A DNA stretch of 64,000 nucleotides from Podospora anserina (taxonomy: Eukaryota): positions 1-64,000 of the forward strand of contig CM030336.1 in NCBI GenBank assembly GCA_017654855.1. Direction: 5' to 3'. Position 1 is the first letter of the stretch; each line of letters opens with the position of its first letter. A program made the position numbers and the translations under genes. The notes below the pieces were generated by a model. The model searched no databases. It saw only the letters and a program-made list of their open reading frames with translations, and was not told the DNA's origin. Positions 8,001 through 60,001 of the stretch are shown piece after piece.

Positions 8001-8069
8001 AGTTTATTAATAAGTTTTTTTAGAAAAAAATACTTTATTAAAGGTAGAGTGGGTTATATATAAATGGAT

Positions 8070-9240: not shown

Positions 9241-9379
9241 TTAATTAAAAGATATAGATATTTAGTTTCCGGACGGTTATATAGTAGGCCTATTATATAA
9301 TAAAATAATATAAATATTATATAATAAAATAATATAAATATTATATAATAGAATATTATATAATAGTAAAAAAGTATTA

Positions 9380-36859: not shown

Positions 36860-37123
36860 CTAGTATCCCCTTCAGAGGTTCTGGATAGGGGTTTGTGACA
36901 ATATTACATGAAAACTAGTCGCTTTCTTTTCCATTCCTCTATCTCTCTATGCTTAGGTTACTCTATTGTATCGTCAGGACGCAGCTTTGTAATATTCGAA
37001 CGCCGCGGAGCTAAGCCGGCCGCCGCGGCGCTTGTCTCCACAGCATTCCGTCATAAATATGCGCGCAGAGATGCTAGACATTTACTTCCTTCATCAAACC
37101 TTCCATCTCAAATTCCCAACATA

Positions 37124-38047
37124 ATGGCGCCTACTTACTTAATCGTTGGTGCGACTGGCAACACCGGCCAAAGTGTTGTGGAAACCTTGTCCAAGCTTTC
37201 AACATGCGCTGTCATCGCCTTGACACGATCGCTGCACAGTCCGGTCGCAAAACATCTCGCGACTCTCCCAAATGTCCAAGTCCTCGAAAAGAACTGGATG
37301 GACATCACGGCACAGTGGCTACGTGAGCACGAGATAGAAAGGGCCTTTGTCGCAACTCCTAGCCAGCCAAGTCAGTTTGCCGAAGAAACCACATTCCACG
37401 TTGCCGCTCTCAAAGCCGGCGTCAAATACGTAGTGCGCATTTCAACAACGGCAGCCAACGTCAGACCTGACTGCGAAGCCTATTATCCGCGCATCCATTG
37501 GGCAATCGAGGCTTTGCTTAGCACACCAGAGTTTAAGCCGCTGCAATGGACGTCTCTCCAGGCCAACAACTTCTCCAGTTTCTGGTTAGCTACCGCAGCC
37601 GAGTTCATCAAGCAATATCGCAAGACCGGTAAACAAGACACACTTCGGTTGGTGGCATCAGAGTATGCACCTGTTGGGACTGTCGACGCCAACGACGTGG
37701 GAGTTTTGGCGGCGCATCTGTTGTTGCAAGAGGACATCTCACCGCATAACAACGCCAAATATGTTGTTAATGGACCTGAGGACATTACGGGAAGACAGAT
37801 CGTTGAGTTGGTTGAGAGGTACATCGGCACCAGCGTGGACAACGTTATCTTCAAAGATATGTCGTTTCTTGATTATATGATTGGTGTGACTCAAGGGTCC
37901 CAAAGTGTTTTGATGTCTATGAAGCATGGCCCAGAGACAGCGTGGAATGGGGAGTGCACAGCGTCTGCCACAAGTGAGGCAGTTTTGAAGCTAGCTGCGC
38001 CTACTCGGACACCAGCCGACACTTTGAAGGCAATGCTGCAGGAATGA
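37124..38047 (+). CDS. NmrA-like / atypical SDR NAD(P)-binding protein
   Basis: Rossmann motif YLIVGATGNTG directly after the ATG at 37124 (preferred to the ORF-track start at 36908). Also DANDVG and VNGPEDITG, typical of NmrA family. Single exon, 307 aa. Confidence 0.85.
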   Translation: MAPTYLIVGATGNTGQSVVETLSKLSTCAVIALTRSLHSPVAKHLATLPNVQVLEKNWMDITAQWLREHEIERAFVATPSQPSQFAEETTFHVAALKAGVKYVVRISTTAANVRPDCEAYYPRIHWAIEALLSTPEFKPLQWTSLQANNFSSFWLATAAEFIKQYRKTGKQDTLRLVASEYAPVGTVDANDVGVLAAHLLLQEDISPHNNAKYVVNGPEDITGRQIVELVERYIGTSVDNVIFKDMSFLDYMIGVTQGSQSVLMSMKHGPETAWNGECTASATSEAVLKLAAPTRTPADTLKAMLQE

Positions 38048-38281: not shown

Positions 38282-39597
38282 CTATGCCTGCCTGAGATGT
38301 GGATTCCCTGGAAGTGTTTGAAGCCCTGGCGGTATTAGTACAACCTGGAGAATTCTCATGACACGCATAAACTTACATTCACCGCCTCTTCCAACAATCT
38401 CCCCTTCAACCTGTGTTGGTTTCGCGCAAGCCACGCCTTCTGCAGGAGACTGGAACTCCAACGCATGACACCGATCGTTGACGCAATCATCCCCCAGCAC
38501 AGCATCCATCCCCCGCTGAAGAGCATCTCCCTTCCAGCCAAAGATATAGTCGCCGTGCTGTCCATACCCTATGCTATCAATTGACATATTAGGCAAGCTC
38601 ACACTTTCAAGACATTGGCCACTTACCCGTCACCAAAGCTGTACACAAACGGCTGCCTCTTCGCTGTCTCATCAAAATAAGCCGGGGCATTGAACTGTGA
38701 TGTATCCCACAGCATTTCATACATCAACTGTGGGATTCGCACCGGGTGTGTCTCTGGGCAGGCCTGGCCGGCCAGTTTCCCTCCTCCGACAGGGCTGTAT
38801 GCAACATGTGAACTGTGGTCGGGAGAATCCAAGTTTTTACCGTCCCAACAAGATGGGAATATCACAGAGCCCCTAATACCACCAGGGCACACTTTCGTCG
38901 GCAGCTCAGAGCTATCAGCAGAGTCGCACGGGGTGAATCCTGTCGTGTTGCCATTGCAGCGGTGGCAGATGCCGGGGAAGGTACGGTCTTTTGACGTGAT
39001 GTCTGGCGAGCCGGCGAGCATTCTGAAGCCCTGAGACACCGGTCAGGCTGGAAGATTTCAACCTCAAGATCTTGAAGGGGAAACTCACTGGGGGAAATGC
39101 TGTCACTTTTCCGTTACCAGATGTACTGCCAAAAACGGATGTCATGTAATAGACCGTGATCCCTCCTCCTACTGGATGACGGACTCCATCCATTCCCACA
39201 AAGTTTGGACGTTGAGGAACAAGCTTGAAAGAGCCATTTTCTGGAGAGCGAAAATAGAGAGAGGCAGTCCAGTAGTTGGAGAAGTCTTCAGAATACGTGC
39301 AAGTGGTGCAAGTGGATGCCCGAGAGGGTTCCATCTCGGAAGGATTCATCTGAACTTGTCAGCACCATGTGCTGCCATCAAAAGCAAGGGCCATCCTACT
39401 GTCACGTTGAATGAGTTTCCACCCACGATCTGGTGTGTATGTGGTGAAGGGCTCAAGCCGGGATTGACCAATGGATCCGTCCTCTCGATGACAAGCTGAG
39501 AGCACGCGAAGCGCAGGAGCTTGCCAACAATGACATTTTGAGAGGTGACAGTAACAACCTGAAGGAGTAGGCCCGCAAAAATGAATGTGAAAACCAT
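38282..39597 (-). CDS. Secreted DUF1996-family protein, 5 exons
   Basis: Signal peptide, then ERTDPLVNPG..HTHQIVGGNSF, CTTC...DFSNYWT, FPSCWDGKNLDSPDH, CPETHPVRIPQ and GYGQHGDYIFGW. GT-AG introns 39350-39399, 39031-39088, 38574-38626 and 38326-38376 restore the frame. Confidence 0.9.
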
Positions 39598-40175: not shown

Positions 40176-40991
40176 CTACTTCCACGCCAAAAGCTCTCCA
40201 TTCATAACCCCAAACCACGATCCCTTCTTCTCCTTCCATTCATGACAAGCTTTGACAAAGTCATCAACTTCCTTGGGTGTTGCATGGCCTCCTCCGATAG
40301 TCCTTTCCCGAAGCTGGCTTCCCTCCCTGAATCTTTCCGCACAACTGTCGCCAAAGAATTGGACTTCCTCCTCGTCCGAGAAGCACCATGAACTTGCCGT
40401 GCTCTTCACCTTATGCTGTTCAAACCCAGCTTCCAGTGCAGCGTTCTTCAAGCCCATCCCCATGTCCGGACTGCCTCCGGTCTCGAGAATCGTGCCCGTG
40501 ATCGCCTTCTCCCACACGTCGAGTCTCTTATCCACCTGAAACCACCTGGTTGTGCTCATGATCATCTCCTTGCATCCAACGACGCCTCCTGGCTTGAGCA
40601 CTCTTCGGACCTCTTTCAGTGCAACAGTGGCGTCGCAAGGCAGATGCATAATGACCATGTGTAAATGTACGACATCGAAACTATCGTCCTCAAACGGTAG
40701 GCGAGAGGTCACATCTCCGACCACAAAGTCGCCATTGCCAAGGGAGCGAGAAGTAAATGTGCTGCGTGCTGCATTGAGAGCTGACTCGGTGATTTCGACG
40801 CATGTCACCCTCCCTTGAGGCACGAGAGCAGCCAAGTCGGCAGATATGGTTCCTGGTCCGCACCCAATGTCGAGAATGTCGAAGTGGGACTTGATGTGAG
40901 GAATGAGATACGCTGCATCCCGCTGGGCGGTGCGCCGAGAGTGAGCGGTGAGAACGGCGGCTGAGTGGCCGTGAATGTATTTGTCTGCCAT
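40176..40991 (-). CDS. Class I SAM-dependent methyltransferase (UbiE/Methyltransf_11/31-like)
   Basis: ILDIGCGPG, LPFEDDSFDVV and RVLKPGG motifs. ATG at 40991. Confidence 0.92.
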   Translation of the reverse strand: MADKYIHGHSAAVLTAHSRRTAQRDAAYLIPHIKSHFDILDIGCGPGTISADLAALVPQGRVTCVEITESALNAARSTFTSRSLGNGDFVVGDVTSRLPFEDDSFDVVHLHMVIMHLPCDATVALKEVRRVLKPGGVVGCKEMIMSTTRWFQVDKRLDVWEKAITGTILETGGSPDMGMGLKNAALEAGFEQHKVKSTASSWCFSDEEEVQFFGDSCAERFREGSQLRERTIGGGHATPKEVDDFVKACHEWKEKKGSWFGVMNGELLAWK

Positions 40992-41137
40992 TTTGGATGG
41001 TTGATGGGAAGAATCGCCTGAATTCAAGCCGCGGCCGGCATGGAGATGGAGATCCGAAGAGGCCTACCCCACCCGGCGTCTAACTTTGCAAGTTTCTGAG
41101 TCAGCAAGGATGCTGAGTTGTTTCTACACTATTTCCA

Positions 41138-42415
41138 CTACAACGTCTTAAGCCACGTCATGATCGCCCTTGTCATGACCCCATCCTGATATCCCAAAGC
41201 AGCATCGAGCACCGCTTGGACGTGCGCTTCACCTTCACACTCAACCATGATCCTCTCCCAACTCCCCAGTTCCTCCGTCCAGTCTTTACTCTTTTCCTGT
41301 TTCGCAATCACGGTCTGGGTATTGGCGTAGGACTCCCCGCCAAAGAATCTACAGTCGTCCAAAAACACTTCTGCTGTCCCAACCGTGATGAACAGCTTCT
41401 TCACCAACCTGACCCCACCTTTTCCTTGAAACACAGCCTGCCACACCTTGTCTGCTCCCTCAACTCCGCACAGATTTGCCCAAACCTCCTTCTCATCCCC
41501 TTTCCAAGCCTCTCCAAACTCATCCACCTGTATTCTGGTCAGGTAATCTCGCTTTTCATTCATTTTGTAGCTTCCCATTGGGGAGTCCATCGACTCCTTA
41601 TGCAGTCTGACAAACGGACTAATCATCACCGCGGCCTGGAACTCTTCACCACTTTTCATCTGGAGCATTGGGGCATAAGGGCTGGGGTTCTGGATGTGGG
41701 ACAATACTGATCCAACCAGCGTACCACCTGCACTGTCGCCCGCTAAGATAATGTCCTCGGCAGAGATGCCGAGACCAGAGGAGGTGCACATAAGATAGGA
41801 AAGGGACGCCACGCATTGGATGAGCTGTGCTGGGTATGGGTGTTCCGGGGCTAGGCTGTATTCGAGAATGATGATTTGCTTTGCTCGAACTGAATGGCCA
41901 CATGCGAGGATAAAGGGCATGTGAGGGGATCGCAATGGATTCACGAAACCACCGCCGTGAAAGTAAAGAAGCGTCGGGGCTTTCCCAGACCTGGATTTGG
42001 CTTCAACATTGCCCAGTGTCAAAATATGCAACACTGCTGGCGGCAAAAGAGCAGGATGAAGCTCGGTCGATGAAGCTGGTAAAGTGACGATCTGGTGTGC
42101 GATCTTGTGCTTGCTGCAGTAGTCCTTGATTGTGGACCCCGTGGAAACACGACGGACCAGCCATCTGAGCAGAGGGGTGGGAAATATGCTTCTTTGCGTG
42201 CGCAGAAATGTCAGGGCGCAGTTTTGGCGCCAGTGAAGAGATTTCTGGTTAGAAAACAAGAATGCCAGCGACCATTTTGTTACTGCTGATGATTAGCTGC
42301 TGTCAACCCGCTACAACGCGAAAAACATACAGAAGAGGGGAAACAAGGCAACCAAGGAGATCCAGTCAAGGACCTCCGGACTGGCGTCTGGGCGCAACTT
42401 TTGTGTTGATGTCAT
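41138..42415 (-). CDS. Alpha/beta hydrolase, HSL/Say1-like esterase or deacetylase, 2 exons
   Basis: HGGG oxyanion motif, YSLAPEHPYPAQ, GDSAG nucleophile, E(V)FLDD and a C-terminal His. Intron 42283-42330 (GTATGT...GCTAAT...CAG) joins the ATG at 42415 in frame. Confidence 0.88.
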
Positions 42416-44091
42416 CTTTGACAAAATCACGAGAAATCGAGCCCCGAGGTGCCTAAAAACTATTATGCATCATTGGGCTTTATTAACTGTTGTCATTCAA
42501 CAGTTGAATGGGTTGAGGTCCGAAGGAACCGAACAAAGTCAGGCCTCGGCAACGGCGGAAGCCGCCTACCTATTTTTAGCTTAGCCTCGGATGACAATGG
42601 ACGCTAGCTCTGAACCCCTGAACCCTTTTTCCAACGTCTCAGACGGTGAGGATACCCGCATCAACACCCTTTAACTAGAACTACAAGTCTCCCCAGATCA
42701 TATTTCCAAAAGGTTGAAAACATACCATGAAAAGGGGACCATTTCATCTGGCATAGCTCACAATGCTGTGCAGCAGACCCACAAAATCGAGCCCAGAATC
42801 TCTTCAACAATGTCCCTCAGCTCCTTGACGTTGAACAGCTGGGCAATCCTCCCGGCACGATAACTAAAGAAAAGGAGGAAACCTACACGCGAACCATCCA
42901 AAATGCCTACTCGCTATACTCGCCTCAAAGCAAAGAAAGTATGAATGGTAAGAGCGTGTCCTCCTAAGGGTACCGATGTCCAGGGACCTATTTGCGAGAT
43001 ATACCGCAGCGACATTATTCGGGCTCGCCGAAATGGTTACACGGCTCTTCCTTTTCCGGCACTCAACCAATCAAGATCGTTTTCCAAGACAAATATTGCC
43101 TCCGATCCCATATTTAAACAAGCCCTGCATTGAACTTTGTGGCATTCAAGGTCACCAAAACTCTCCAAGAAGCTCTGAGAACACTTCATCAGTCAAGCTT
43201 TGACGGTCATCTATGGGTAGACATGTTCGTATCAATCGTTGAGCATTGTTACCAGGCTAGGTACTTTGACGCAGAGCATACCTATAAGGAGCCTCGTCAG
43301 TAGAGGTATGGCTTGAAAGTAATTCGAGACACAGTTGCAATATTTTGTTGCAGGACGACAACGTTTTAACCGATCAGCTTGTAGCCAATCTCGACCCAGA
43401 AACAAATTTCCTTAAACTAAAGAGTGAGAGTATAACCACATCGAGAAGACCAGAGCATCAGTGCTTTGTCACATTGCTTAGCGTATTGACGGTAATAAGC
43501 TGGCAGAGTTTGTCGCGAAGGTATCATGCGATCCGGTATACTGTCCGCTGGTATTGAACAGCGAAGGCCGAGAACAAGAGAACATATCTTACAATGCTCT
43601 GACAGGACAAGATTAGCCACGTTTTGGCACCATCATGCTTGACCTCGGATACTTGTTGCAGCAAAGCTTTGCTGCCAATACCGAACTGAAACCTACTGTC
43701 TCTGCGCTCCTACATCGGTGTGAAAGGTTGAGCAACATCGACTGGTTCCGACGGTTGGGTTAGTGTTTGGGAAACTGGATGGTGCCGACAATCAGCTTTT
43801 AGGAAACAGGTCATTACAGTTGTGAGATGGGCACGGTTATCTAATCCCCCGAGCCCCTGAGACCATAAGGTGTAGGCCAGCAACCCAGAAATTCGATATA
43901 TACCTAAGGTCTTGATCAATGAAACGAGTTTAGGTTTCTAGATTTCTATCAAATTCGACTACCATATTCCCTGTCCAATCAGTGTTACTTTCCAATCAAA
44001 ATGCCGGTAACTTGGTTGTCGTTGGGAATGAAGTCAAGAGTAGAAATGAGCTGGCCATTGGAGAACCACGCCATCTGTCAATTCTCTCCCA

Positions 44092-45645
44092 TTAGGGTGA
44101 AAGACGGGCAGCATCACGAGGAAATAACACCGTCTCGCGAATGTCTTCCAAGCCCAAGAAACCCTGTACAAGACGGTTGATGCCCACTGCAGATAAGTCA
44201 GCACGATTCCCATGTCACAAGGATCAACAAAAAACACTTACACCCGAAGCCTCCCCAAGGAGGCATGCCAATTTCGTGGGCCGTCATGTACGGCCTCCAT
44301 TCCGGCGTTTCCGGGTCAATCGGATGAGGTCGGTTGGCAAATGCGGCTGCTAGGTCTTCAGCGCTGTGGAGTAGTCGGCATCCAGTAACACATTCCTGTC
44401 CTCTGAGAATGACATCGAAAGATTGGGTTGTGTCATCCTGTTCATCAGAGGGATAGATATTGCAGGACCTCAAATGTTTCGGGAAGTGAGTGATGAAGAA
44501 AACATCGGTTGGAGGGCTGACGTGGGATTCTTCGCTGGCGAGGAATCTGCCGAGTGCTGCTTCTTCGCTCCTAGTGAAGTCTTTGTCATCGTCGGACTCG
44601 ATACCTATAAAGTCTCTCAGAATGGTTTTGGCTTCATTGAAACGGATGCGTGGGAGCTTTCCGCTCTTTCCAAGACCTAGCTTGAAAGTGCCAGCTAGGG
44701 GGTAGAGTCGTTTTGCGGTGTTGGTCAGCGTAGTGTATTTGTCCTGACTCTGCAAAGAGTGTAGAAGTGATACCAGTAGACTATCAGCAAAATCGAGGAT
44801 CTCTATCCAGCTATGCTGAAGATTGAATACAAGTTCCAGCATGGTGAACTGTGACCAAATCAGCATTTTTCAAACTAAGAAAAAGGGGGATTCTCTACCT
44901 CGGTGAGATGTCTGCCATCAGAAACAGGCTCCCTCCGAAAAACTGTGTGAAAGTCGTAGACGCGCTCCAGGTCGGCTGAAAGTGCCATTCCAAGGTGTAT
45001 CTCTCCTGTTGGCGCCAATCTGGCTGTCCTGCCGAAGTATGGAACTGTAAACAAGTCGTCCTCCTCTCCTGGGAATTCGTAGCCAACAAGTGCAGGGGTT
45101 GGGACGTGGTAAAAGTCATGGAGCTTGAGGTATTCTACCGCCAGCTCATGGACCCCCGAGAAAAGCTTGAAGATTGCTGCTGTTGCAGGAACACGAGCAT
45201 CCAGGAGTCTGTTGTCGAGTCTCTCTTCGATCAACTTCGTAGGAGATTGGATCGAAGCTAGAACCTCCCCTGAAGCTCCATGAAGGACATTGCTATGAGC
45301 ACCTGGAGTCTTGGCGGCCGACAGGTTGTGGATATCGCAGAGCTCGATTGGAGTGATGTCAGAGTCAGTGTCATGAGCCACCGATCGAGCGGTAACCCGA
45401 ACAAGTGACTCTGGCGTTAGAAAGCTGACGGTATCGAAGACATCATTGTCAAGGCCATTTTTTGATTCCACTGTAGCTTGAAGAAAATGCCCATTGACGC
45501 ATCTGAACAACACCGCAACTGAATTGCTGTCATCGGATAGAACTGGGCTGTTGTGAACGCGAACATCCAAAGACTTGATGTCGGTATCGCCGTTCGACAG
45601 GTGAGATGGGCCGGGTTGGGATGAAATCTGCCTAGCATTAAGCAT
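44092..45645 (-). CDS. Divergent class IIb aspartyl-tRNA-synthetase paralog, 3 exons, about 482 aa
   Basis: RLDNRLLDAR, motif 1 (FYHVPTPAL), motif 2 (FRREPVSDGRHLTEF) and motif 3 (GMPPWGGFGLGINRL...LFPRDAARLSP*). Introns 44849-44898 and 44187-44241 give a continuous frame. The start codon is the least certain part. Confidence 0.9.
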
Positions 45646-45997
45646 CGTGCACTGTTGTACGGTATTGAACAAGATTACTTTCCCTTGAGATCAGGTTGGG
45701 GGGTAATTTCAAGAGCAAATGCCATGTGTCACTAGATAATGAAGGAATTTATGGCAATAGCGGCGGGATGAACATGTCGGTCAAGAGGTTTGGCCAAGCA
45801 TGTTGAATCGGACTTGTGCACTGATGGTAGCACGAAGCTGAGCAAGACAGGTAGCGCTTGGTAAGAGTTTGCGGGGATTAGTCGTTCTGCGTGGATGCAA
45901 TCCTGCCTCATGGCACCCCAACCAGGTATAACACCCCAGAATGGTTGTCGATGAATGACCTTGCGTGCCTTGGGTTGTCCTCGCTTCATAATTTTCT

Positions 45998-46857
45998 ATG
46001 ACTTTCAAAATGGCCATTGATACACCCACTTCCTCAACCAAGACCCTCGAGCTTGAGGTTGTTAGATACGAGCAGCTCAGGAGCAACGACAACGCCGAGG
46101 TGAGGAAGCTAGCCCAGGCCTTGTCTGACCAGGGAATGCTGTTCTTGGACCTCCAGGGATCCACGGCAAAGCAACTCCTGAAAGACCTGCAAACCGTGAT
46201 ACAGCATCAGCGAGCCTTTTTTGAACAGCCGCAGGAGGAGAAGTCCAAATATCACACGGGCATTCGATACAACGGGTGGGTACAGGTCGAAATTCTTCTT
46301 TTCTACTCATCGCTAATCCAGGCCCTTTTCTCAGATTTTACACTTCCCCCATTGGTGTCGAAAAGATTCACCTTGGTCGCAAGGAGCAAATGGCAGGGGA
46401 CCGGTCTCAACTTCCCGAAGCACTTCAGCTGGTGGCAGACAAGGTCGAAAATGTCTCTTCGTTCATCGACAAGATACTCCGCGAGATTGGCATGACGTTG
46501 GCAAGCTCGATGGATGAACGATTCCCGGCCAGTTTGCAGGACGCCACCAGACCCGGCCAAAGTCATCTAACATTGGGTATCTCAAAGGCACGTGCCGGGA
46601 CACCTCTAATGGACGGCCACACCGATGACGGTTTCCTCACTCTCACGTTCTATGACGAGCCCTTTCTCGAAGTCTTGGATAGGTCTACAAACGAGTGGAA
46701 TTTGGTTGAGGTGAATCGCAACATGCCAATCCTGAATGTAGCTGCCCAGTCGGCAAAGAACTCGGGAGGTCGGCTGTACAACCCCTGGCATAGGGTGAAG
46801 ATGGGGGAGAACGAGATAAACTTGGTCATGTTTGATCTGTTTGAAGATTCGAATTAG
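45998..46857 (+). CDS. Fe(II)/2-oxoglutarate-oxygenase-fold protein (DIOX_N/IPNS-like), 2 exons
   Basis: DIOX_N-like N-terminus (FFEQPQEEKSKY), HTDDGFLTL and a distal WHRV. Intron 46276-46334 joins the two ORF-track frames. Confidence 0.85.
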
Positions 46858-47037: not shown

Positions 47038-49218
47038 TCAACCCAAGACCAACAGTCGGTGGATTTCTGCCCGTCCAAGATCATACCCAGTGACAAACTC
47101 ACAGCATCGGAGCCCATCCCTCTTCAGCTCCGCCCAACATGTCTCAAAGCCAGTGGCCTTCCGTTGGATCATTTCTGACAGACAAAGCCTCTCCCTTCTT
47201 CCCAGCAACTCTCCATTGTCAGCCACCCATTGCTCCAAGTCAAGAAAAGCACGCGCCAGACCAAGCAAAAAGACGCTGTTGATCATCGGGTGCTGAGCCC
47301 ACCCTAAAAGGTCATGGGAAAACCTGCCGGAGTCATTGAGGTTCTCATCTTCTGGACGGCCAATTATGTCTCCTAAACAGGTCGGCTGTGGCAAACCCCT
47401 ATTCTTCATCATTTCGAGACCCAGGGCCACCAGGTCGGGGCTGTAGCCAGGCCAATGCTGCTCATCCATGCAGGCAATACCTGTGCCCACCGGCTTGTAG
47501 CCCTTTTCTGCTCGCAATATTTGCAAACAGTTGGACACCAGGGGTGTGATTGTCTGGTGAGGGGAGCTGATGATATTTTCCAGGAGTCCTGCGTGGGCAA
47601 ACCACAGTGGTAGTAGGGCGTCTATTTCAACTGCCGACTTGTGTATCTGGATTGGTGACTTTGGCTCAAAATCGTTCATCTCGCACAGCGACCAGGTCCT
47701 CGTGGCGGGAAAAGTCGGATGGCTGACCGCAGCATCATGACGCGAGGGGTCAAAGGTCTTTTCCAGGCTCTGATAGCCACCAACACGCCCCCAATAAGCC
47801 TCGCCCATATCCTTGCCATGTGGTCTGAGGGAGTCAATCCAGTTCCGAAGCAGTTCAGTCTCGACGTGAGTGAAAGCACCAAACATCCTCCCTTTCCAGC
47901 CCAGCTCCCGCATCAAAAGGCTCTTGCTGCTGTCACCTCTGCATACCCATGGCTTGGAGTCTGCCAAGGCGTCAAGGAACTCATCCTTCCAACCGTCATC
48001 ATCCTTGGGGCTCGAAGGAGGAGCAGAAAACCAAGATGACAATTTTCTCTTTCCAATCCGGGCGCGACTCGTACAATGAATCTTGGTGGCAATGGTGGCT
48101 TTCTTGCAGATGATGTCAACCAGCTTGTCCTCGTAATCATCCACGGTATCCCTGTCATCGAGACTCTGCCCGAGGCAATAGCCAGCCTGCACACGCCTCC
48201 ACGCTGTCTGCTGGTCCATGATGCCCGTGTTCTGAACAATCTCCATAAAGTGTGCAATGTTGCCAATCGCCATCGCGCAGTGACCCGAGTGCGCGTTGTC
48301 GATCGATATGTGCAAAGCATAGTAGTAGGGCGAGATCCCAAACTCGGGCAGCTCCTTGTTGGCTTTCAAGACCCCAATGGCAGGCTGCTCGTAGTGGAGA
48401 TTAAACCCCAGAATCTCAGGTAAAAACTCGTTAGGAAAGACGGAAATGAGGAGTTGTCCAATGGCATATCTCCAAATCGTCTCATCCTCCATGCCATGGC
48501 GTGGGTGTATGAAATCGAGCGAGTCGCCGTTGGGCAGGTCCACACCCACGCTCTGGAGAAGCTCCTTGTAGAGCAATATGTGGTTCTTTCCCAGATCCCC
48601 ATCACCAAGCTCTTCTGAAAAGATTTGCCAAGCATCCTTTGTCACGCCCCGAAAGGCGAAGGGGGTTGTGACCTGATGAATCCGTGCGAGCCATGCGCCA
48701 TCGGTGTAGTTCCACGGTGCGCTGTTCTTGAGAAACATGCAGGCTTCTTCGAAGCTTTTGAACAGCTCAGGTCCACCACCAAGCTCCCTTCGACGCATGT
48801 AGGCTTCGAATTCCAGACCCACATCGAGCTGGATGTCTTGGATGAAGCTTTGGAGACGGGAGGCATCAAAGGTCGCGATGTTGAGAATGCTGCGAGATCG
48901 GTCCTTGTACTTGGCCATCCGGAGTCCTTGTTCGAGTAACGAAAGCAACGTTTCTCGAACTTGGGGCAGGATTTCTGGGAACCGCTCCAGATTTTGAACT
49001 TTGTGGTAAAGATCTTTGAAGTGACGCATTCGTTGCTGCCGCTTCCTTTCTAGGCGTGGTGACTTGGGCTTTTCGTCGGTCAAGATCGCTATGTGGCCTG
49101 TTGTGGAAGCATTGGACCAAGTTGGGAACGAGAGTCGTGGTTTTCGCCATGGGAACGAGATGTAAAGAAAACAGCTAAGAGGGACAATTATCAAGAGTAA
49201 AGATTCCAAGTTGAACAT
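47038..49218 (-). CDS. Heme-oxygenase-like diiron oxidase (HDO, iron-containing redox enzyme family), 726 aa, with hydrophobic N-terminus
   Basis: DGAWL, EELGDGDLGKNH, LPEILGFNLHYE and HISIDNAHSGH give the E-H-E-H-D-H ligand pattern of HDOs. GRMFGAFT..E..LLRNWI segment follows. Single exon. Confidence 0.82.
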   Translation of the reverse strand: MFNLESLLLIIVPLSCFLYISFPWRKPRLSFPTWSNASTTGHIAILTDEKPKSPRLERKRQQRMRHFKDLYHKVQNLERFPEILPQVRETLLSLLEQGLRMAKYKDRSRSILNIATFDASRLQSFIQDIQLDVGLEFEAYMRRRELGGGPELFKSFEEACMFLKNSAPWNYTDGAWLARIHQVTTPFAFRGVTKDAWQIFSEELGDGDLGKNHILLYKELLQSVGVDLPNGDSLDFIHPRHGMEDETIWRYAIGQLLISVFPNEFLPEILGFNLHYEQPAIGVLKANKELPEFGISPYYYALHISIDNAHSGHCAMAIGNIAHFMEIVQNTGIMDQQTAWRRVQAGYCLGQSLDDRDTVDDYEDKLVDIICKKATIATKIHCTSRARIGKRKLSSWFSAPPSSPKDDDGWKDEFLDALADSKPWVCRGDSSKSLLMRELGWKGRMFGAFTHVETELLRNWIDSLRPHGKDMGEAYWGRVGGYQSLEKTFDPSRHDAAVSHPTFPATRTWSLCEMNDFEPKSPIQIHKSAVEIDALLPLWFAHAGLLENIISSPHQTITPLVSNCLQILRAEKGYKPVGTGIACMDEQHWPGYSPDLVALGLEMMKNRGLPQPTCLGDIIGRPEDENLNDSGRFSHDLLGWAQHPMINSVFLLGLARAFLDLEQWVADNGELLGRRERLCLSEMIQRKATGFETCWAELKRDGLRCCEFVTGYDLGRAEIHRLLVLG

Positions 49219-49580
49219 GATGGAGCAATTTTCTTGTGACTGAAAGCGAAGAGGTGTGTGCTTCCATTACGAAAAAGGAGATCGGTCTCTGTGGGCATTC
49301 TATATCTAGTATTCAGGGCTTCATAAGCTCCTGTCTTTCATCCCGCGTCCCGCACTGAGTCATGTCAGCAAATCTTGTTGGGAGAGTGATGGATATGACC
49401 CTACAACGTATGGAATCATGGGTCATGGTCGGGTTCCGCAGTAAACAAGGTGCAAGTAAATGGAGACTGTTGATCCGAGAATGAAAACTGCTAAGGTCGA
49501 TTAGCTGCCATACAAAGCGATCACGAAATAGGTAGCACGGACCGTCAATACGACTCAAGGTTTCTTGGTAATCATTTCAA

Positions 49581-52150
49581 TTATTGAGCCTCCCTACTGT
49601 GATCAGATCTAGCCAAAGCCTGGTCCAAACTCTCCAACAGACTGGGTACAATGCTGTCCCCGAACAAATGGGGATGTACGTCCATAAGAGACCTCAACGC
49701 TTCTAACAGTCCTAGCAGCTGTCGAGAGTGGAATGTGATGTCTTGATCGAACTTTGACGCCACCCCTGGTCCACGTCTTTGAATCCACATTGTGCTGTCC
49801 AAAAGACTACTGAGAGCAAGACTATCCCAAAATATACCCCCTTCCATGATACCCTGAACAGGGGAATAAACGGTGTAAACTATTCTCGAAGCAGGGGGTA
49901 TGATGAGTATATCGTCCTGCTCCAAAATAAAAGCCCTTTGTGCATCACTTCTCTCAAGACTCTTCAGCGCAGGGTCCGTATCAGTGTCAGAAAGAGAGGC
50001 AAAGATGCAGATTTTGAGACCCTCAAGATTACGCAACCAAACCCCACTCATGGTGGCAAAGGATGGCCCAAAGCAGAGATGGGGAAGGGTGACGGCGTTG
50101 AAGTCAGTTCTGATCTCAGGCAAAACCTCGGGGCTTCCTAGTTGTTGGCATGCACTGGCACTCCTGCTAGTGCGTAGTCTGAGTCGCTCTACCAGACAGT
50201 CTAGTAGACGGAAACGTGGAAGCATGGTCAACAAAGGTCGATGCGAGTGGGTCATGTTCCTGAGATTGGAAGTGCCTCGATCGTGAACAGAGTTGGCAAG
50301 TTCATCCTCCAATAAACACAAAGAATCAAGCATGGCGTGCATACCAGAATCTAGAAAGGTTTCCTTGATGATCACTGGCTTTTCGAACACTTGGTGTGCT
50401 TTAGCGGCCTGGATAGCTTCGTCGGAGGTGAGATAGAGCACATCAGCATCCATGGGAGATGCAGCACGACCGGGCAGGACCGCATTACCTTGCGTCCACA
50501 TCGAGGCCCATTTTGTTGCTGCCTTCAGCGGTGGTGCCTGGTCTTGGTGGGTTTCAAGGGGGTCTTGCCGGGCCTCCTTTGCAAGCATGCCGTCGATATA
50601 AGGCATAATTGTAGGGTAATATTGGTTATGAAGCGTTTCCTCCAGGCTGGCCAAGCCTTTTCCTGTGATTGGAGCCGTTCCAAGATATAGAGCTGCTGAG
50701 GTGAACAGGTCGGCTTCCAACTCGCTGGATTGTGGTGAGGTTGGGCTAGGTTCCGAATGGAGTCGAGATGGGCCTGAAAAGCTGGGGGTTGTGGGTTCTG
50801 ATGTTATGGTCGAAGGTTGAGGTTGCCCAAAGGAGTTCATGGCTGAGGGCGAAAAGAACAAGGCTGAAGATTGCCAGCACATGGGATTGTGCATATCGAT
50901 GCTGTAGGACAGGTCTGCGCTGTTCCAGTCCCACATCGAGTCAAAGAGTGGCATCGCTTCCGAGGGCGCAGAGGACATCTCCTGGAAGTTCTCTAGCTGA
51001 TTCAGCGACACGTCTAAGCTGGGCTGTGTGTCCCGAAGTTGGTCCTGTGCAGGTGCTATCTGAGCATCTCCCGGGCCATCATCATCGCCTGTACTCACTT
51101 CCGCAGGCGAGGTTTTCAGCGGCATGGTATGCTGGTGTCTTGGCGAAGATGGCAGGCAAGCTTCGCCCCGAGCAGCGAGGACGCCGAATCGGTCCCTTCG
51201 CAAAAGATGGGCCGCAAAGTGACCGGGTCTGATGTCACGCAAGAAGACTGTCGCCTGTGCGTCCACGGCGACACGGCCATCCTGACTGGCGACCCACAGC
51301 TCCTCCATTTTGCCATCAACTGTCGTCAAAGCCAATGTAACCAGATCAAAGTCGCGATGGGGCTGCAGAGGAGCCTCGTTCAACGTCTTTAACCGGCCAC
51401 CAAGAAGCGCCTGTCGATGTCGGTGTAATAACACAGCATTGAGGCGCGGCAGAAATTCGTTGAAGAAGTCGGGGTAGCTTGTTGCACACGCTCGGAGCAT
51501 GTTCATTTGTACCTGACTAGCACAATTCCAAGCATAGTGAAACACCACGTCGGGAGACCAGAGCGCAACAATAAATGCGAGGTTTCGTAGACGGTTGTTT
51601 TCATTGTATGCCCGTTTTCGCTTCTTTTTGGTAGCCTCTTCACGCTTGTTTCTGTCTGCCAGGTGGGATAAAGCCAGCAGCTCTTTCCACTCTGGTTCTC
51701 TATTTGCCTGTGATCGACGCGAAGAAACGATCCTGGCCACAGAGCAAAACGTGGAGATGCGTGTGTCGAGGTGGTCACACTGGTCAACAAGGCCGTCGCG
51801 AATGCTTGAGAATGTCGAGATGGGCGCGTTGCTAGCCCATGCTTGATACAGCTCCTCGAGCCACGCTCGAGTCTCCTGATCAAACCCAAGGCTGGTGTCA
51901 TGACCAGGCTGAAGCTCCCAACCCCTATTCAACCCCTGTCAGCGTTTTTGTGAGCACGGGCCGTGGCCGCAGCAACTGGAACTTACTTTGACGGTGGGCC
52001 GTGCACCATCCCCTTGATAGGTATGAATTTCGATGAGATTTTGCGGCGTTGCTGTAGGGCTGGGCATAAAGGCGTACGGGAAGCCCTTGGAGGAAGCTGA
52101 GAGCCTGTTGAGGGTATGGGTGTAGCCCTTGGAGGAAGGAGGTCCGACAT
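49581..52150 (-). CDS. Large protein with basic NLS-like patch, S/P-rich linker and degenerate JmjC/cupin-like C-terminus (possible regulator), 2 exons
   Basis: The 783-codon open frame is extended by intron 51925-51986 (GTAAGT...GCTGAC...TAG) to an ATG at 52150. KKKRKR patch. C-terminal ILEQDDILIIPP..VYTVYSP..IMEGGIFWD resembles JmjC beta-strands. The CDS is secure; the function is tentative. Confidence 0.65.
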
Positions 52151-53314
52151 CTCAAGCAGAAGAAGGGTGGGTGACAATTGTTCATGTATGCCTCGATGTA
52201 ACTTGGCGTACTTTTTGCCTCAAGTCCTCCACTTCGGACAATCCCTCCCTCCCTGTTATTATGGCGTCATGTTGATGTTCTGTTTGGTGTGTTCTGGCAA
52301 TGGGAATCCTTCACATTGCTGTCAACAAGAAGGCAACATTGTGAGAGTACATGTCAAACAGCATAACCCACGCTCCCATCTGACCAGTAAGGAAGCAGAG
52401 GGACAAAATATGAGGTAATGAAAACTGATGCATGTAAGCCGGATACACGGAGCCCATCATGCAGAGGCCTTGATGGAGGTACTTTCAAGGCTGAAGCCTG
52501 CCAAAATGCCAGGACAAATTGTACTATACGCTGCTGTGTAACTCATGGTACGGATGATCCGCGAAAGACATGGGGTAGGCCCATGCATCATTGAGACGCT
52601 GAGCGTGGTGCCTGTGAAGATGCCAAGAGCTAGATGCGGTTTATTAGGTGGGTTTGGGGGCTGTGGGGCGGGCCGTCTGAGGCGCGTGGCTGCTGAACCG
52701 TTGGTGTCTCTGTTTCCCACCTCCAACCACTCACATCCGAGACGGACTCACATGTTCGCAGTTGGGCCTCACCAACGGCTTCGAATTCAGCGGGCCCCGG
52801 AGTTGAAAACCCTATGGGGCTCTCGGCGCTGTCCCGTGTTTCGGTCTGCGTGTCTTCCTTGGTTCTTTGAGCTCCGCGCCGCAACGGTGAATGAGAAATG
52901 GGGCAAACATTCCCTACAGTACACCGACTCGATCCTGCCTCGTGGCACCTGCCTCTAAGGTAGAAACATCCGCTCTACTATGCCTCCAAGGGATATGACT
53001 AGCTCCAACGCGACTGCTGACTGGAAGCTGGAACGAGATCCGGGCCCCGATTTGCCCGATGACACACCAAAGCTGAAAGGGGCATCGGTTTAAAATGGAC
53101 CTGTTCTTTGACGAACCTGTCGTGCTGGATGGCGAAATTGAATGCAAATGCACCTGCATCTCCTATTCTCCAACCTGCGCTGCAACACAACCGCATCTTG
53201 CCATCAAATCGACCTCACTCCCTCACCGCCGGCTGATTGACGACAACCAGCATCTAGAGATATGCAGCCTTGAGAAGCCAGCGACCACTCACGTCCTTGC
53301 CCGCATCGCACAAC

Positions 53315-55062
53315 ATGGCGACCAAAACGACCACCGTGACCGAGTTGCACACCATCTCGTTCGACCCCTCCACCACAAACTCGGGCGCGACTTCACGGAA
53401 AAGCCAGAGCCGCGATGCAACAGTCGTGGCTTCTGATTCAGAACCAGAGGCGTCTCCCATCTCGGCCAAGTCAAGGCCGGCTCTGCTGCCCAAAGGCCGC
53501 GCCATCATCGTGACCACCCAGCTTTGTGGCCTGCTGTTCTTCAGCAGCTTCTGCAATGGCATCATCGTCATCGCTCTACCTGCCATGCACTCGGAGCTGG
53601 GTCTACAGGAGAGCCTCCTGGTTTGGCCCACCTCGAGTTACTATCTCACGGCCGGTTCCTGTTTGTTGCTGGCCGGCTCCATCGCCGATGTTGTCGGTGT
53701 GAAAAAGGTCAACCTCGTTGGCTCTTTCCTCAGTTCCATCTTTGCTCTGGCCTGCGGTCTGGCACAAACTGAAGGTCAAATAATAGCATTCCGGGCCCTT
53801 CAGGGCATCACAAACGCCATCATTGCCCCCTCAGCGATATCCATCATCTCCAATAGCGTGGCCGAGGGCCGGCCGCGGAACATGGGGTTTGCATGCCTCG
53901 GATTCAGCCAGCCGCTCGGGTTCAGTCTTGGCTTGGTGCTCACGGGGGTCATGACAGACACGGTGGGGTGGCGGCCAGCCTTCTACCTTGTAGCCGCCTG
54001 CAGCATAGTTTTGTTTACCATTGGGATATGGTCACTTCCGCAAGACATTCACTCATCGGGTAGCCAATCCGTTCTGAGGCGGCTCGGAGGTGAGATCGAC
54101 TGGATCGGAGTAGGCTTGGCCAGCATGGGGCTGGCCCTGTTTTCATACGTTTTAGCGTAAGCATCAACACCTGTGAAACATTCGGCGGGCCTGCATAAGC
54201 TAATTGAGTGATGCTTCTAGATCCCTGTCGGCCAACATCCAGGACATTCGTCAGGCTGGCACCATCGTTTTGCTCGTAATTTCTGTCTTTTCTGTTCCAT
54301 CCTTTGTGGGGTGGATGCACTACCAGACCAAGAAGAACCGCACAGCACTGATCCCGAACTCTCTCTGGCGAAGCGGTGTGTTTACGAGCGCCTGCGTCAT
54401 GGTTATGCTGACCAACGCTTTGATCAACTGCATGGAGTTGTATAGCAGTCTATTGTAAGCCTGTTTCCGAAGCTTCAAGGTCCATGTCTAACGCGTTGTC
54501 TCCTTAACTTAGCTTCCAAACTATTCAGGGACAGTCTGCTCTGACGGCGTCCCTTCAAGTGCTTCCCTCTTTGGTAGCCGGGATTATCACCAGCATTCTC
54601 ACGGGCATATTTGTCAACCGCATGCCTGTATTCTGGACCGTCCTCATCACTACAATCGTCAGCACTGTCTCGGCCTTGTTGATGGCCCTGGTCCGTACCG
54701 ACCAAGTATATTGGGAGAACGCCTTTGTTGCGCAGATCCTCTCACCCATCAGCTGTGACCTTCTCTTTACAGTTGGCCTCCTGATCATTTCGGATGTTTT
54801 CCCGAAGCACATGCAGGCTTTAGGCGGCGCAGTGTTCAACACGTGTGCTCAGCTTGGGGTCGCCATTGGGCTAAGTGTGACGCAGGTCGTTGCCTCATCG
54901 GTCACAAACAACTCGCAATATGACAACAAATCATCCCCCGAAGCCCTTATGGAGGGATATAGGTTAGCTTTTTGGATCATGTTTGGTTGGATGGTGTTTG
55001 TTTGTGGGGTATGCGCTGTTGGATTGAGACGAGTGGGTGCAATTGGTGTCAAGCGTGACTGA
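53315..55062 (+). CDS. MFS drug:H+ antiporter-like transporter (DHA2 type), 3 exons
   Basis: GSIADVVGVKK (motif A), FRALQG and IDWIG, with many hydrophobic helices. Introns 54157-54220 and 54455-54512. Confidence 0.92.
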
Positions 55063-57678: not shown

Positions 57679-59541
57679 ACGTGCGTGATAAGCGAGCCGA
57701 ACAGACAAGCGAGCCGAACACTTTCTAACGCAGCGTAACCCTCCGACTTCTTTTACCAACTTTACTACTAATTCGCTATGAATTCACTTCCAACCGAATC
57801 TCGAATTATTTTAGCCCTCGAAGCTATCAAAAACGACCCAAATCTTAATCTTCGACGCGCAGCTAAGCTTTATAACGTACTAATTATAACTCTTTATAAC
57901 CGACGCGCTGGCCGGCTTATACGACGCGATATACTAACTAACTTACGTAAGCTTACCGCTTTAGAAAAGAAAATAATTATTTAATATATTATTAAGCTAT
58001 ATATATATATATTTTATCTTCGGCTTTTATATATAAAAAATATAATTAATTGATTATTATATGAACGCGACGTACCTCCTATTAGTATATAATAGACTTA
58101 TAATTTTATTAAATATTAATTAGAATTTCAGACGCGTTTTATGTGTAAATATAATTATTAAAGGGCTAAATATAAGGATTTAAAGGTTATTAATAAGTAA
58201 TTTATTTTTATACAGAATATTAAAATTAAATATAATATTATAAATAATAATATTTATAATTTTAATAAAATTAAATTTATAATAAATATTATCTTTATGA
58301 ATATAATAATTATAATTTTTAATAATTATAATAAAATAAAATTAATTTAATTTAATAACCGTAAATAAATAATAGTAATTTACAAAATTAATATTTTCGG
58401 TTAATTTATTTTTTATTATTATTTAAATTATATAATATTATTTAATTAATTAATATATTAAATATAATTTATTATTTACTTAATATATTATAATTATTAA
58501 TAATAATTAAATTATTAATATAATAAATTTAAATTAAATTAAGTATTTTAATTATTATATAGCGTCCTATATAAAAAATAAATATCGATTATTAATCTTT
58601 AACGGTTATAAAAGTTATTACTTAATTAAATTTAAACATTATTATTAATAAAATAATATTATTACGCTTTATATACTTTTATATTCCTTTTACTTCCTTT
58701 AATTATTTAATATTAATAATTACTTTAAATTATTAAAATAAATATATAATCGTTAAATTAAAAACTTAATAAATATATATATTAATTATATAAATAAATT
58801 TAAATTCCTTTATACTTTCTATAAAGCTTTTTTCGCTTTTATAATAAAAAAAATATATAAAGTAGTTTTATAGATATTAATTTTATACTATACGATTTAA
58901 AAAAGAAAAATTTTTAAATTAAATATAAAGCTTCGTACGTTAATACTTTTAAACTTACGGCCCGGCATTATATAATTTTAAGTCTCCTAAATACTATATA
59001 ACCTTTAAAAAACTAATTTATAATTAATATTTATTAAAATTTATATTATTAACTATTAAAATAGCTTTTTAACTTTAATATTAATTACTATAAATTAACT
59101 TACTAAAAGTATAATAACTATAATATACTAAATAGTTTTCCTTCGTATAAAGAATATTATATTCTATAAAGCTAACGAGGTACTAAGTAGGCGCCGGAAA
59201 ACTAAAAAAATACGTATGTAGCTTGGAGGGTCACTTACTGTACAAGAGGCACAGGATCTACTAGATCAGAAGGCTATAGGCAAGTAAGTAATTTAGGAAG
59301 ATCGATAAAGTGGTGGTGGTGCAAGGGGGTCTCGTCCGAAGATTCAGTGCTGTAGCGTGTGCGGTAAGCCAGACTATAATACACGCACCTGTAAGGAGGC
59401 TGCAGAATCATCTGATTCATCTATTTCTGGTTTAATTATTGTGGTTTCCTAGTATTGTGGTTATGTAATTGAAGATAGTTGTAGTGGGGTGGTGGAAAGT
59501 GTTCGGCTCGCTTGTCTATTCGGCTCGCTTATCATGCACGT
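57679..59541 (+). mobile_element. Fot1/pogo-family DNA transposon (1863 bp), heavily RIP-degraded
   Basis: TA TSDs. ~45-bp TIRs ACGTGCGTGATAAGCGAGCCGAACAGACAAGCGAGCCGAACACTTTC. HTH start at 57778 (LRRAAKLYNV) and a C-terminal CxxCG zinc-knuckle relic at ~59350. Confidence 0.93.
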
Positions 59542-60001
59542 TAGGTAGTTCAGCTCTTGTTGGGCAATCTTCAAGCTATTACTTAAGTTCAGATTGTGTT
59601 AGATGATGACGTTGCCATGGTATCCTTTTTGAGAGAATGGACTTGCGGTTGCTTTGGAGTGGCCATGAGTGAAACGCCTGTTTAGGTACCCCTGAGTTGG
59701 TTATATGCGATGTGCAGGCTTAGGTTGGCTGAAGAGTGTGTATGCGATGCAGGGCTCGTGGTGCCTTTGCAATCATAGAGGTCAAGGTAATGGCTTCCAT
59801 CTTTAAAGATCGAGGTGAAAATTCCCAGCAATGAACGCTACACAAGTTTCCATTCCTTATGACCCATGGTATATAACAAGACAAATTCCCAGTCCAGTGA
59901 CTTGCGCCAGTATGTCCGTCTCATAACCCAGCTTCTATCCCTACCAGTAACAGAATAAACAAAAAGAGTGTACATGTACCATCCAATACCTATACCGTCT
60001 G

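Follow-up and report, generated by a model that had tools for sequence, protein, structure and literature searches.

The first 64,000 nucleotides of Podospora anserina contig CM030336.1 (forward strand; hereafter, the window) encode a large fungal protein that belongs to the heme oxygenase-like diiron oxygenases (HDOs) and that is accompanied by three other conserved genes. These genes encode a protein resembling 2-oxoglutarate (2OG)-dependent Fe(II) oxygenases, a paralogue of aspartyl-tRNA synthetase (AspRS), and a transporter of the major facilitator superfamily (MFS). It is very likely that the HDO is an active diiron enzyme of a conserved four-gene pathway. The best explanation of the whole, which we regard as probable, is a membrane-anchored diiron HDO, probably an N-oxygenase, that serves a four-gene small-molecule pathway; we infer the metal content, the topology, the N-oxygenation, the class of substrate, and the joint action of the four proteins in one pathway from the data presented below. 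By every testable criterion the protein is an HDO, and we found no description of its eukaryotic spread, its anchor, its tandem pseudo-dimer, or its set of partners. It does not constitute a new enzyme class; it belongs to a well-defined, widespread, and biochemically untouched branch.

A sequence-only reading of the window had placed a large intronless open reading frame (ORF) at this locus, with a full set of diiron ligands between about residues 170 and 320, and both points held. There is one ATG-to-stop ORF (coordinates for this and other features are given in Table 1), and as full-length homologues match it over its entire length, the gene needs no intron. The identical 726-residue sequence was found in a public protein collection, and the window HDO aligned with a 724-residue protein of Apiosordaria backusii (78% identity, 100% coverage) and with a Podospora australis protein (66% identity, 98% coverage). 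The HMMER comparison with PF14518 (HDO) that the reading had proposed as a check gave a Pfam match on residues 161 to 347, covering profile positions 2 to 177 of 177 (E = 2.8e-28; 99.3 bits against a cut-off of 28.9). All six canonical positions of the putative diiron ligands are filled (E203-x9-H213, E277, and H303-x3-D307-x2-H310), and H313 is present in addition. The spacing (E-x9-H; E; HxxxDxxH) equals that published for SznF (E215, H225, E281, H311, D315, and H318) and RohS (E124, H134, E190, H218, D222, and H225) in the excerpted text of PMC13133933.

Columns invariant over 37 aligned homologues include E202, E203, D206, H213, E277, H303, D307, N308, and H313, and among the putative ligands, only position 310 varies. 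The third-helix motif of the fungal family reads HxxxDNxxxGH, with an invariant His at +10. A word-indexed homologue search (8000 candidates) scored 538 proteins at E <= 0.001, and all counts of family composition given here refer to the 120 of these that were listed. Position +7 of the motif is Asp in 112 of them and His in 6, with the window protein among those 6; every other member of its own subclade has Asp at residue 310 (window 48289-48291). H310 restores the canonical HxxxDxxH of bacterial HDOs on top of the family's own His at +10. NCBIfam returned no family for the protein, and phmmer with the whole sequence found no match in PDB at E <= 10. A profile made from the homologue alignment retrieved RohS alone from PDB (E = 1), and the match lay on the first ligand helix.

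Modeling agreed with the HDO fold that had been proposed from the letters. From the 37-sequence alignment, AlphaFold2 gave a model with a mean predicted local distance difference test score (pLDDT) of 85.9 and a predicted template modeling score of 0.87, and when this model was compared with PDB by Foldseek, the top nine rows were RohS, SznF, and HrmI (best E, 0.067; probability, 1.00). Foldseek candidates were then realigned with VIA-align, with matches spanning model residues ~52 to 358. RohS (Z 19.6; 250 residues, 2.9 Å), SznF (Z 19.4; 249 residues, 3.0 Å), and HrmI (Z 19.1; 256 residues, 3.3 Å) came first, and entries of these three proteins filled ranks 1 to 10 (Z 17.2 to 19.6; 245 to 266 residues, 2.9 to 3.8 Å). 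The next family was FlcD (Z 15.4), followed by CADD (12.6), HamA (11.6), PolF (11.5), PqqC (11.4), UndA (10.8), and heme oxygenase (7.2). The solved structures nearest to the model are thus the bacterial HDO N-oxygenases, with their extra N-terminal helices included. Thus, like SznF (in its central domain), RohS, and HrmI/BelK, the window protein has a PF14518 domain, a predicted seven-helix heme oxygenase-like bundle with additional N-terminal helices, and identical ligand spacing. Unlike them, it is eukaryotic and anchored, carries a middle region of ~150 residues and a ligandless heme oxygenase-like domain, and shares only 12 to 16% identity with the solved HDOs; the fungal family also differs in its third-helix motif (His at +10, and Asp at +7 in the great majority of listed members) and in not conserving the seventh Glu position.

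The ~370 residues that follow the HDO domain are conserved family-wide in the 37-sequence alignment. They begin with a middle region whose invariant residues are K373, H381, W396, W424, G443, M445, G447, F449, T450, and W460. For the remainder, the sequence-only reading had guessed at a second, ligand-poor helical bundle, and this guess was borne out. Folded alone, residues 361 to 726 reached a pLDDT of 83, and a VIA search of ~48,000 PDB representatives, run directly with no Foldseek step, gave HrmI as the best match to the second bundle (Z 13.8; 187 residues, 3.2 Å), with HamA (12.0), CADD (11.9), FlcD (10.5), SznF (10.3), RohS (10.2), and UndA (10.2) further down. Helical bundles can score a Z of ~13 through arrangement alone; we call residues ~513 to 726 heme oxygenase-like because the match list is uniform (its top 34 rows are all HDO, TenA, PqqC, or heme oxygenase folds) and because the whole domain is covered. 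This bundle contains neither E-x9-H nor HxxxDxxH, and its conserved residues are H542, E547, R569, D585, E586, R686, and Y712. By hhalign, the N-terminal domain was not similar to residues 361 to 726, 361 to 520, or 520 to 726 (probability 0.2 to 0.3), and an ESM Atlas search with residues 360 to 726 gave no usable match. With no sequence similarity between the two bundles, the assignment of the second draws on its fold and on the collinearity with bacterial proteins described below. The modeled C terminus is accordingly described here as a predicted degenerate copy of the HDO domain, which, speculatively, may replace a partner subunit.

The hydrophobic N terminus had been flagged as a possible membrane anchor, and several observations favor this. 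The mean Kyte-Doolittle value over residues 1 to 19 is 1.82, the AlphaFold2 model has a helix at residues 3 to 21, and a comparable hydrophobic N-terminal stretch (mean of at least 1.6) is kept in 94 of 113 full-length homologues. The helix is followed by basic residues and then by a disordered, low-confidence linker (residues 23 to 48; pLDDT <50). A secreted-protein signal peptide is the less likely reading of this segment, as its n-region has no positive charge, its hydrophobic run is long, and the basic residues come after it. The N-terminal helix probably tethers the HDO to a membrane, most plausibly that of the endoplasmic reticulum, with the enzyme facing the cytosol.

We then asked how far this architecture extends. 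The 120 listed homologues are 505 to 833 residues long, all contain PF14518, and their named sources are filamentous ascomycetes (Pezizomycotina) throughout. By species name, these sources fall in the Sordariomycetes, Dothideomycetes, Eurotiomycetes, Leotiomycetes, and lichen-forming classes. The records are annotated as "hypothetical protein" or with domain-level names, and one bears an evidently unrelated ABC-transporter label. The family is therefore no isolated case but an ancient one that is common among filamentous ascomycetes. When shorter relatives were sought, 36 matches came up, all of them fungal fragments or truncated models, with no single-domain relative among them.

Outside the fungi, two of the most conserved fungal motifs gave 50 pattern matches in 185,579 prokaryotic species genomes (bacterial and archaeal), none of which was a relative. 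An exhaustive HMMER search with HDO residues 50 to 360 returned 838 cluster representatives at E <= 1e-3 (145 at E <= 1e-30), including proteins of ~750 residues with a C-terminal PF14518 domain. In BLASTP comparisons with one such protein, P0240 (758 residues), window HDO residues 60 to 464 aligned with residues 30 to 420 (27% identity; E = 8e-30), middle-region motif included, and residues 56 to 347 aligned a second time with residues 460 to 741 (31%; E = 7e-28). Several ligand positions are lost in the N-terminal half of P0240, and all ligands are kept in the C-terminal match. Both matches of the fungal N-terminal domain to the bacterial tandem halves were supported by hhalign (E = 3.7e-33 and 8e-49), and fungal residues 361 to 726 followed the bacterial middle region collinearly and ran on into the second HDO copy (probability 99; E = 2.5e-18). 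Confidence in that alignment is confined to the middle region, and residues 520 to 726 alone gave nothing against the bacterial tandem profile (probability 0.4). A prokaryotic genome scan yielded 227 tandem-HDO relatives, in Pseudomonas, Burkholderia, Paraburkholderia, Methylococcaceae, Streptomyces, Micromonospora, Actinomadura, and others.

The bacterial tandem HDOs of ~750 residues are the nearest nonfungal relatives of the fungal family. The two lineages share the order HDO, middle region, HDO, the middle-region motif G(R/P)MF..FT..E..W..SL, 27 to 31% identity, and HxxxDNxxxGH, but the order of the copies is reversed: the first copy is degenerate in bacteria, where the C-terminal half is intact, and the second is degenerate in fungi. 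The best explanation is that the window HDO is an internal pseudo-dimer descended from a tandem architecture held in common with bacteria. The reciprocal degeneration suggests that one active site per tandem suffices, and the built-in degenerate domain suggests that the catalytic unit needs a partner bundle. The broad bacterial spread, set against the apparent restriction of the fungal family to Pezizomycotina, suggests an ancient transfer from a bacterium to a fungus. P0240 also differs from the window HDO in having no N-terminal hydrophobic stretch in the BLASTP alignment, and the bacterial proteins have a different conserved partner, a NodU/CmcH-type carbamoyltransferase in place of an aminoacyl-tRNA synthetase (aaRS)-like or 2OG-like gene.

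That carbamoyltransferase gene directly follows the tandem HDO gene at 70 of 80 bacterial loci in Proteobacteria and Actinobacteria (L057 to L136; e.g., L060:7656-11819), as assessed by tblastn and by Pfam on 27 ORFs from four of the loci. The pair looks like a conserved two-gene module. We found no paper describing this module in our literature search, and the part of the mangotoxin paper available to us (PMC13725569) does not describe the pair.

The sequence-only reading had also placed the HDO gene inside a cluster. We compared the gene neighborhoods of 56 metagenome loci with relatives (numbered from L001) and the window, 57 loci in all, by clustering ORFs of at least 100 residues; many of the metagenome contigs are just 2 to 4 kb long, so that neighbor counts are lower bounds. 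A 2OG-oxygenase-like neighbor was found at 17 of the 57 loci, an AspRS-like neighbor at 10, and an MFS neighbor (two clustered MFS families) at 11. In a quick maximum-likelihood tree of the HDOs (45 rows, after exclusion of the 12 loci whose longest HDO ORF is below 450 residues; support by the Shimodaira-Hasegawa-like approximate likelihood ratio test only), the 2OG-like neighbors fall in one 23-row clade (support, 99), and the window HDO lies in a 9-row subclade (support, 99). Within that subclade, both the 2OG-like and the AspRS-like genes are present at all six loci with usable flanks (the window, L001, L002, L005, L006, and L036); the other three contigs measure 2.0 to 2.6 kb.

This linkage has outlasted rearrangement. 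The gene order is HDO > < 2OG < > AspRS in the window, L001, L002, and L005 and < AspRS 2OG > HDO > in L036, L049, L050, and L055, with the AspRS-like and 2OG-like genes divergently paired in both. In the window subclade, the genes have stayed together despite this reordering and an HDO identity of only 37 to 39%. When all window ORFs of at least 40 residues were compared with L001, L002, and L005 by tblastn, only the HDO, the 2OG-like gene, three AspRS-like exons, and the MFS gene were conserved; the MFS counterparts beside the HDO are 70 to 78% identical in L005 and 47% identical in L002. The methyltransferase, hydrolase, NmrA, DUF1996, and IDO-like genes of the window are not conserved HDO neighbors. 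With conservation limited to four genes, the functional unit is the HDO, the 2OG-like protein, the AspRS-like protein, and the MFS transporter rather than the wider island; the cluster reading is thus right, within these narrower limits.

A different neighbor was seen elsewhere in the family. At 14 of the 57 loci (L007, L010, L012, L013, L015, L016, L020, L024, L026, L029, L030, L037, L038, and L039), the HDO adjoins an MTS/N6-Mtase-type methyltransferase unrelated to that of the window. These members belong to short-branched (slowly evolving) clades and have the methyltransferase in place of the 2OG/AspRS pair, which suggests a different, perhaps more basic role for them.

The partner proteins themselves point away from standard chemistry. 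In the 2OG-like protein, whose nearest solved relative is rice DAO (E = 6.3e-5), the HxD...H triad (HTD and HRV) is kept in each of the 16 aligned neighbors (of 17) whose sequence covers those columns, and the shortened L002 ORF stops before the distal His. The position of the Arg of the RxS motif, which we take to bind the 2OG C5 carboxylate, is Ile in the window, L001, and L005, Lys in L049, L050, and L055, and Arg in 10 of 17 rows (L002 has no residue there). The AspRS paralogue is of the eukaryote/archaeal type. Its best PDB match by phmmer is yeast AspRS (1eov; E = 1.1e-16 over 185 residues of exon 1 and 1.4e-13 for exon 2), and the match reaches into the N-terminal anticodon-binding-type domain. 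The class II core is kept, with motif 2 (FRRE..RHLTE), the Arg of the G-x-R-x-x-H stretch, and, in the third exon, the motif 3 Arg and an FPRD ending. Its QS(P)Q..K loop, presumably the aspartate-binding loop of canonical AspRS, reads PTGEI(H/Y)L in the window, L001, and L005, with no Gln and no Lys; the more distant paralogues of L036, L041, and L049 keep QS(T/S)QHHKQ. The absence of a canonical substrate-binding residue from both partners in the window, L001, and L005 points to derived chemistry rather than to an AspRS with a housekeeping role or an ordinary 2OG hydroxylase.

Transcript evidence came from contigs of four runs in four studies, which we assumed to be RNA (hereafter, RNA-like). 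The introns of the AspRS-like, 2OG-like, and MFS genes were all joined as modeled in spliced contigs from the four runs. These contigs scarcely reach the body of the HDO gene (depth of at most 2.7 in 47292-48259 and none in 48260-49227) and give no evidence on its expression. One contig of the 2OG-like transcript runs past the end of the gene at 46857 to position 47303 and so takes in the last ~265 bases of the HDO coding region, which converges on it from the other strand; the two genes can therefore give overlapping antisense transcripts.

Independent genetic support for a partnership of HDO and 2OG-like protein comes from Sclerotinia sclerotiorum. In the sections of a September 2026 report to which we had access (PMC13608281), the PF14518 gene SS1G_07963 and the adjacent 2OG oxygenase gene SS1G_07964 (SsOxy2 and SsOxy1) were knocked out, and both mutants lost infection cushions and virulence, were hypersensitive to oxidative stress, and had 63 altered metabolites in common. 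The authors propose a common unidentified secondary metabolite and name a transporter and a flavoprotein as neighbors. The SS1G_07963 protein (P0081) is 41% identical to the window HDO over 92% of its length. The Sclerotinia genes thus resemble the window genes in that a member of the same fungal HDO family adjoins a PF03171 oxygenase and a transporter; they differ in the flavoprotein neighbor and in that those sections name no aaRS-like gene, and the evidence they give comes from mutant phenotypes and untargeted metabolomics and includes no enzyme activity. The support is therefore genetic, with no chemistry. Since a crop pathogen depends on the homologous pair to be fully virulent and to tolerate oxidative stress, identifying the reaction would explain a real phenotype. 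The same text calls SsOxy1 and SsOxy2 lineage-specific acquisitions, yet the SsOxy2 family spans the named filamentous ascomycetes, including Stromatinia cepivora (Sclerotiniaceae).

How might the four proteins act? In the mechanism that we favor, the seven-helix bundle at residues ~52 to 358 would bind two Fe through E203, H213, E277, H303, D307, and H313 (and H310) and activate O2. The enzyme would take up two Fe(II) and form a peroxo-diiron intermediate, as SznF and RohS do, and would oxidize an amine or an amino-acid-derived substrate, most likely at nitrogen. It would act with the 2OG-oxygenase-like Fe protein, with the AspRS paralogue as a neofunctionalized, ATP-dependent, adenylate-forming enzyme, and with the MFS protein as exporter, and the unit would make and export a small oxidized amine or amino-acid-derived metabolite. 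N-oxygenation of an amino group is the most likely reaction of the HDO, with a somewhat better than even chance in our estimate, because the nearest structural relatives by a clear margin are N-oxygenases and because the partner is an amino-acid-activating enzyme.

Several points weigh against this mechanism. The structural matches have weak Foldseek E-values (none at E <= 0.001), and the sequence identity to solved HDOs is low, as given above. The seventh carboxylate of SznF and RohS lies 26 residues ahead of the first Glu (PMC13133933, excerpted text). The corresponding position is L177 in the window HDO, and the nearest invariant acid is D173 (DGAW motif), four residues earlier; the window HDO is therefore no more than a candidate member of the substrate-independent N-oxygenase subgroup (SznF/RohS type, 3H/4C). 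Many members have no AspRS-like neighbor even with 10-kb flanks (e.g., L015, L022, L030, and L034), and the partnership of HDO and AspRS paralogue is thus clade-specific. Finally, HDOs sharing the same ligands run very different reactions, according to the portion of a review available to us (PMC13108848), so that structural proximity does not fix the chemistry.

This last point opens the way for an active HDO that does something other than N-oxygenation, such as C-C cleavage, desaturation/decarboxylation, or rearrangement in the style of UndA, BesC, FlcD, AetD, PolF, or MboA, with an amino acid or a lipid-like compound close to the membrane as substrate. All HDO subtypes have the six-ligand set in common, the model also matched FlcD, PolF, and UndA, the lack of the seventh-ligand Glu is a hallmark of the substrate-triggered subgroup, and a membrane anchor would suit a hydrophobic substrate. 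Yet the three best structural matches are all N-oxygenases, lie ~4 Z units above the next family, and share the extra N-terminal helices, and the partner activates amino acids and is not a lipid enzyme. We consider such a reaction unlikely, though it is the alternative to be taken most seriously.

A more specific form of N-oxygenation has also to be weighed, in which the HDO, the AspRS paralogue, and the 2OG-like protein would together be a fungal, convergently evolved machine for making N-N (or N-O-acyl) bonds. In this scheme, the membrane-bound HDO would supply a hydroxylamine by N-hydroxylation of an amine. The AspRS paralogue would activate an amino acid as its adenylate, independently of tRNA, and join it as an ester to the oxygen of the hydroxylamine, and the beta-helix Fe protein, which has lost the 2OG-binding Arg, would catalyze the rearrangement. 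Bacterial hydrazine-forming systems combine an N-hydroxylase, a MetRS-like adenylating enzyme, and a cupin (e.g., Afn18/Afn8/Afn9), and the valanimycin route passes through an aminoacyl ester of a hydroxylamine, with the diiron protein VlmB acting later (both from partial text of PMC11705231). The likeness is one of logic only: an N-oxygenase is combined with an ATP-dependent amino-acid activator derived from an aaRS and with a metal protein of the double-stranded beta-helix fold. The three proteins have no homology to their bacterial counterparts: an HDO stands here in place of a flavin monooxygenase, a class II AspRS-like protein in place of the class I MetRS-like one, and an HxD...H 2OG-type protein in place of the cupin. 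The cupin of hydrazine-forming systems binds zinc. The bacterial tandem HDO with its adenylate-forming NodU/CmcH carbamoyltransferase would fit the same logic of oxygenating and then O-activating, a circumstantial parallel. We know of no N-N product from these fungi, and we hold the proposal to be quite improbable. If it were true, a pathway dedicated to N-N bond formation would have been described in fungi for the first time, assembled from three unrelated protein families.

The AspRS-like gene might instead be a resistant copy of a target enzyme, in which case the HDO and the 2OG-like protein would make a compound for export by the MFS protein, either an analogue of aspartate or an inhibitor of AspRS. 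Resistance copies of aaRSs inside clusters have precedent, an aaRS paralogue is indeed linked here with tailoring oxygenases and an exporter, and both the canonical Asp-binding loop and the GSQR motif survive in the paralogue of the L036/L041/L049 clade. The paralogue is nonetheless very divergent from housekeeping AspRS (best match to the yeast enzyme, as given above, over 185 residues), and the PTGEI(H/Y)L loop of the window, L001, and L005 speaks against a functional AspRS, which leaves self-resistance with a chance that we put as slim. That the neighbors are incidental, and the HDO a stand-alone membrane enzyme of general fungal metabolism, is suggested by the very wide spread of the family and by the short-branched clades that have a methyltransferase and neither the 2OG-like nor the AspRS-like gene, but is made very unlikely by the persistent linkage in the window subclade and by the shared phenotypes of the S. 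sclerotiorum knock-outs (PMC13608281, sections consulted).

Fungi figure little in the literature on these enzymes that we could consult. The available text of a 2026 mini-review (PMC13108848) describes more than 10,000 HDO members "in a myriad of bacterial species," and in it the terms fungal, eukaryot-, and membrane occur zero times; a 2024 review of N-N-forming enzymes, in the part available, gives fungi two roles only, as organisms from which azoxy compounds come and as an engineered host for production. Our literature search, which covered main texts, found no biochemical characterization of a fungal HDO, of the tandem architecture, or of an HDO-linked AspRS paralogue. The sequences described here thus define a large conserved eukaryotic HDO branch with three features not described for solved enzymes, namely, the anchor, the degenerate second heme oxygenase-like domain, and the linkage to an aaRS paralogue and a 2OG-like protein. 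Study of this branch could reveal new N-oxidation, and possibly N-N bond, chemistry in fungi.

Table 1. Features of the HDO gene and its surroundings in the 64,000-nucleotide window
Feature	Position	Strand	Basis and remarks
HDO gene	47038..49218	-	Single exon, ATG start, 726 residues plus stop; ORF list, translation, homologue alignment
N-terminal hydrophobic helix, residues 3-21	49156..49212	-	AlphaFold2 helix; read as putative signal-anchor, inferred topology
Intact HDO domain, residues 52-358	48145..49065	-	PF14518, VIA-align, invariant columns; putative ligands E203, H213, E277, H303, D307, H310, H313
Conserved middle region, residues 359-512	47683..48144	-	Motifs KIHCTSRARIG, SKPWV, GRMFGAFT..E..WIDSL
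Second heme oxygenase-like bundle, no diiron ligand motifs, residues 513-726	47041..47682	-	Fold search
2OG-Fe(II)-oxygenase-like gene, convergent with HDO	45998..46857 (long ORF 45992-46857)	+	Pfam DIOX_N, 2OG-FeII_Oxy
2OG-like exons	45998-46274, 46334-46857	+	Intron 46275-46333; spliced contigs, 4 runs
AspRS paralogue, class II aaRS-like	44092..45645 (long ORF 44198-45690)	-	Pfam tRNA-synt_2
AspRS-like exons	45645-44899, 44848-44242, 44186-44092	-	GT-AG introns 44849-44898, 44187-44241; read from DNA, spliced contigs
Intergenic region between divergent AspRS-like and 2OG-like genes, 352 bp	45646..45997	.	Putative bidirectional promoter
MFS transporter, fourth conserved member (start codon provisional)	53258..55062	+	Pfam MFS_1; introns 54157-54220, 54455-54512
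ORF of 785 codons, directly upstream of HDO	49581-51938	-	No Pfam family even at E <= 10
NmrA-like	36899-38047	+	Pfam on long ORFs
DUF1996	38623-39358	-	Pfam on long ORFs
Methyltransferase	40176-41063	-	Pfam on long ORFs
Abhydrolase_3	41138-42292 (long ORF); 41138-42483 (gene)	-	48-nt intron 42283-42330; Pfam, contigs
IDO-like ORF, weak, past AT-rich spacer	60177-61004	-	Pfam on long ORFs

The four genes lie in a gene island at ~36 to 58 kb with a G+C content of ~41 to 55%, between long stretches of about 20 to 29% G+C. Positions 1-36000 and 58000-60000 have 19 to 29% G+C and a strongly negative GC skew, apart from one block of 40% G+C at 8001-10000. These AT-rich flanking blocks look like repeat isochores degraded by repeat-induced point mutation (RIP). 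Within the island, the 785-codon ORF is covered by RNA-like contigs (49561-51270) and is not conserved beside the HDO in L001, L002, or L005. In run X19, no other contigs of the region reach the word depth of those from the Abhydrolase_3 gene. At window position 54522, the window has T and the contigs of all four RNA-like runs have C, which could be a strain difference or editing.

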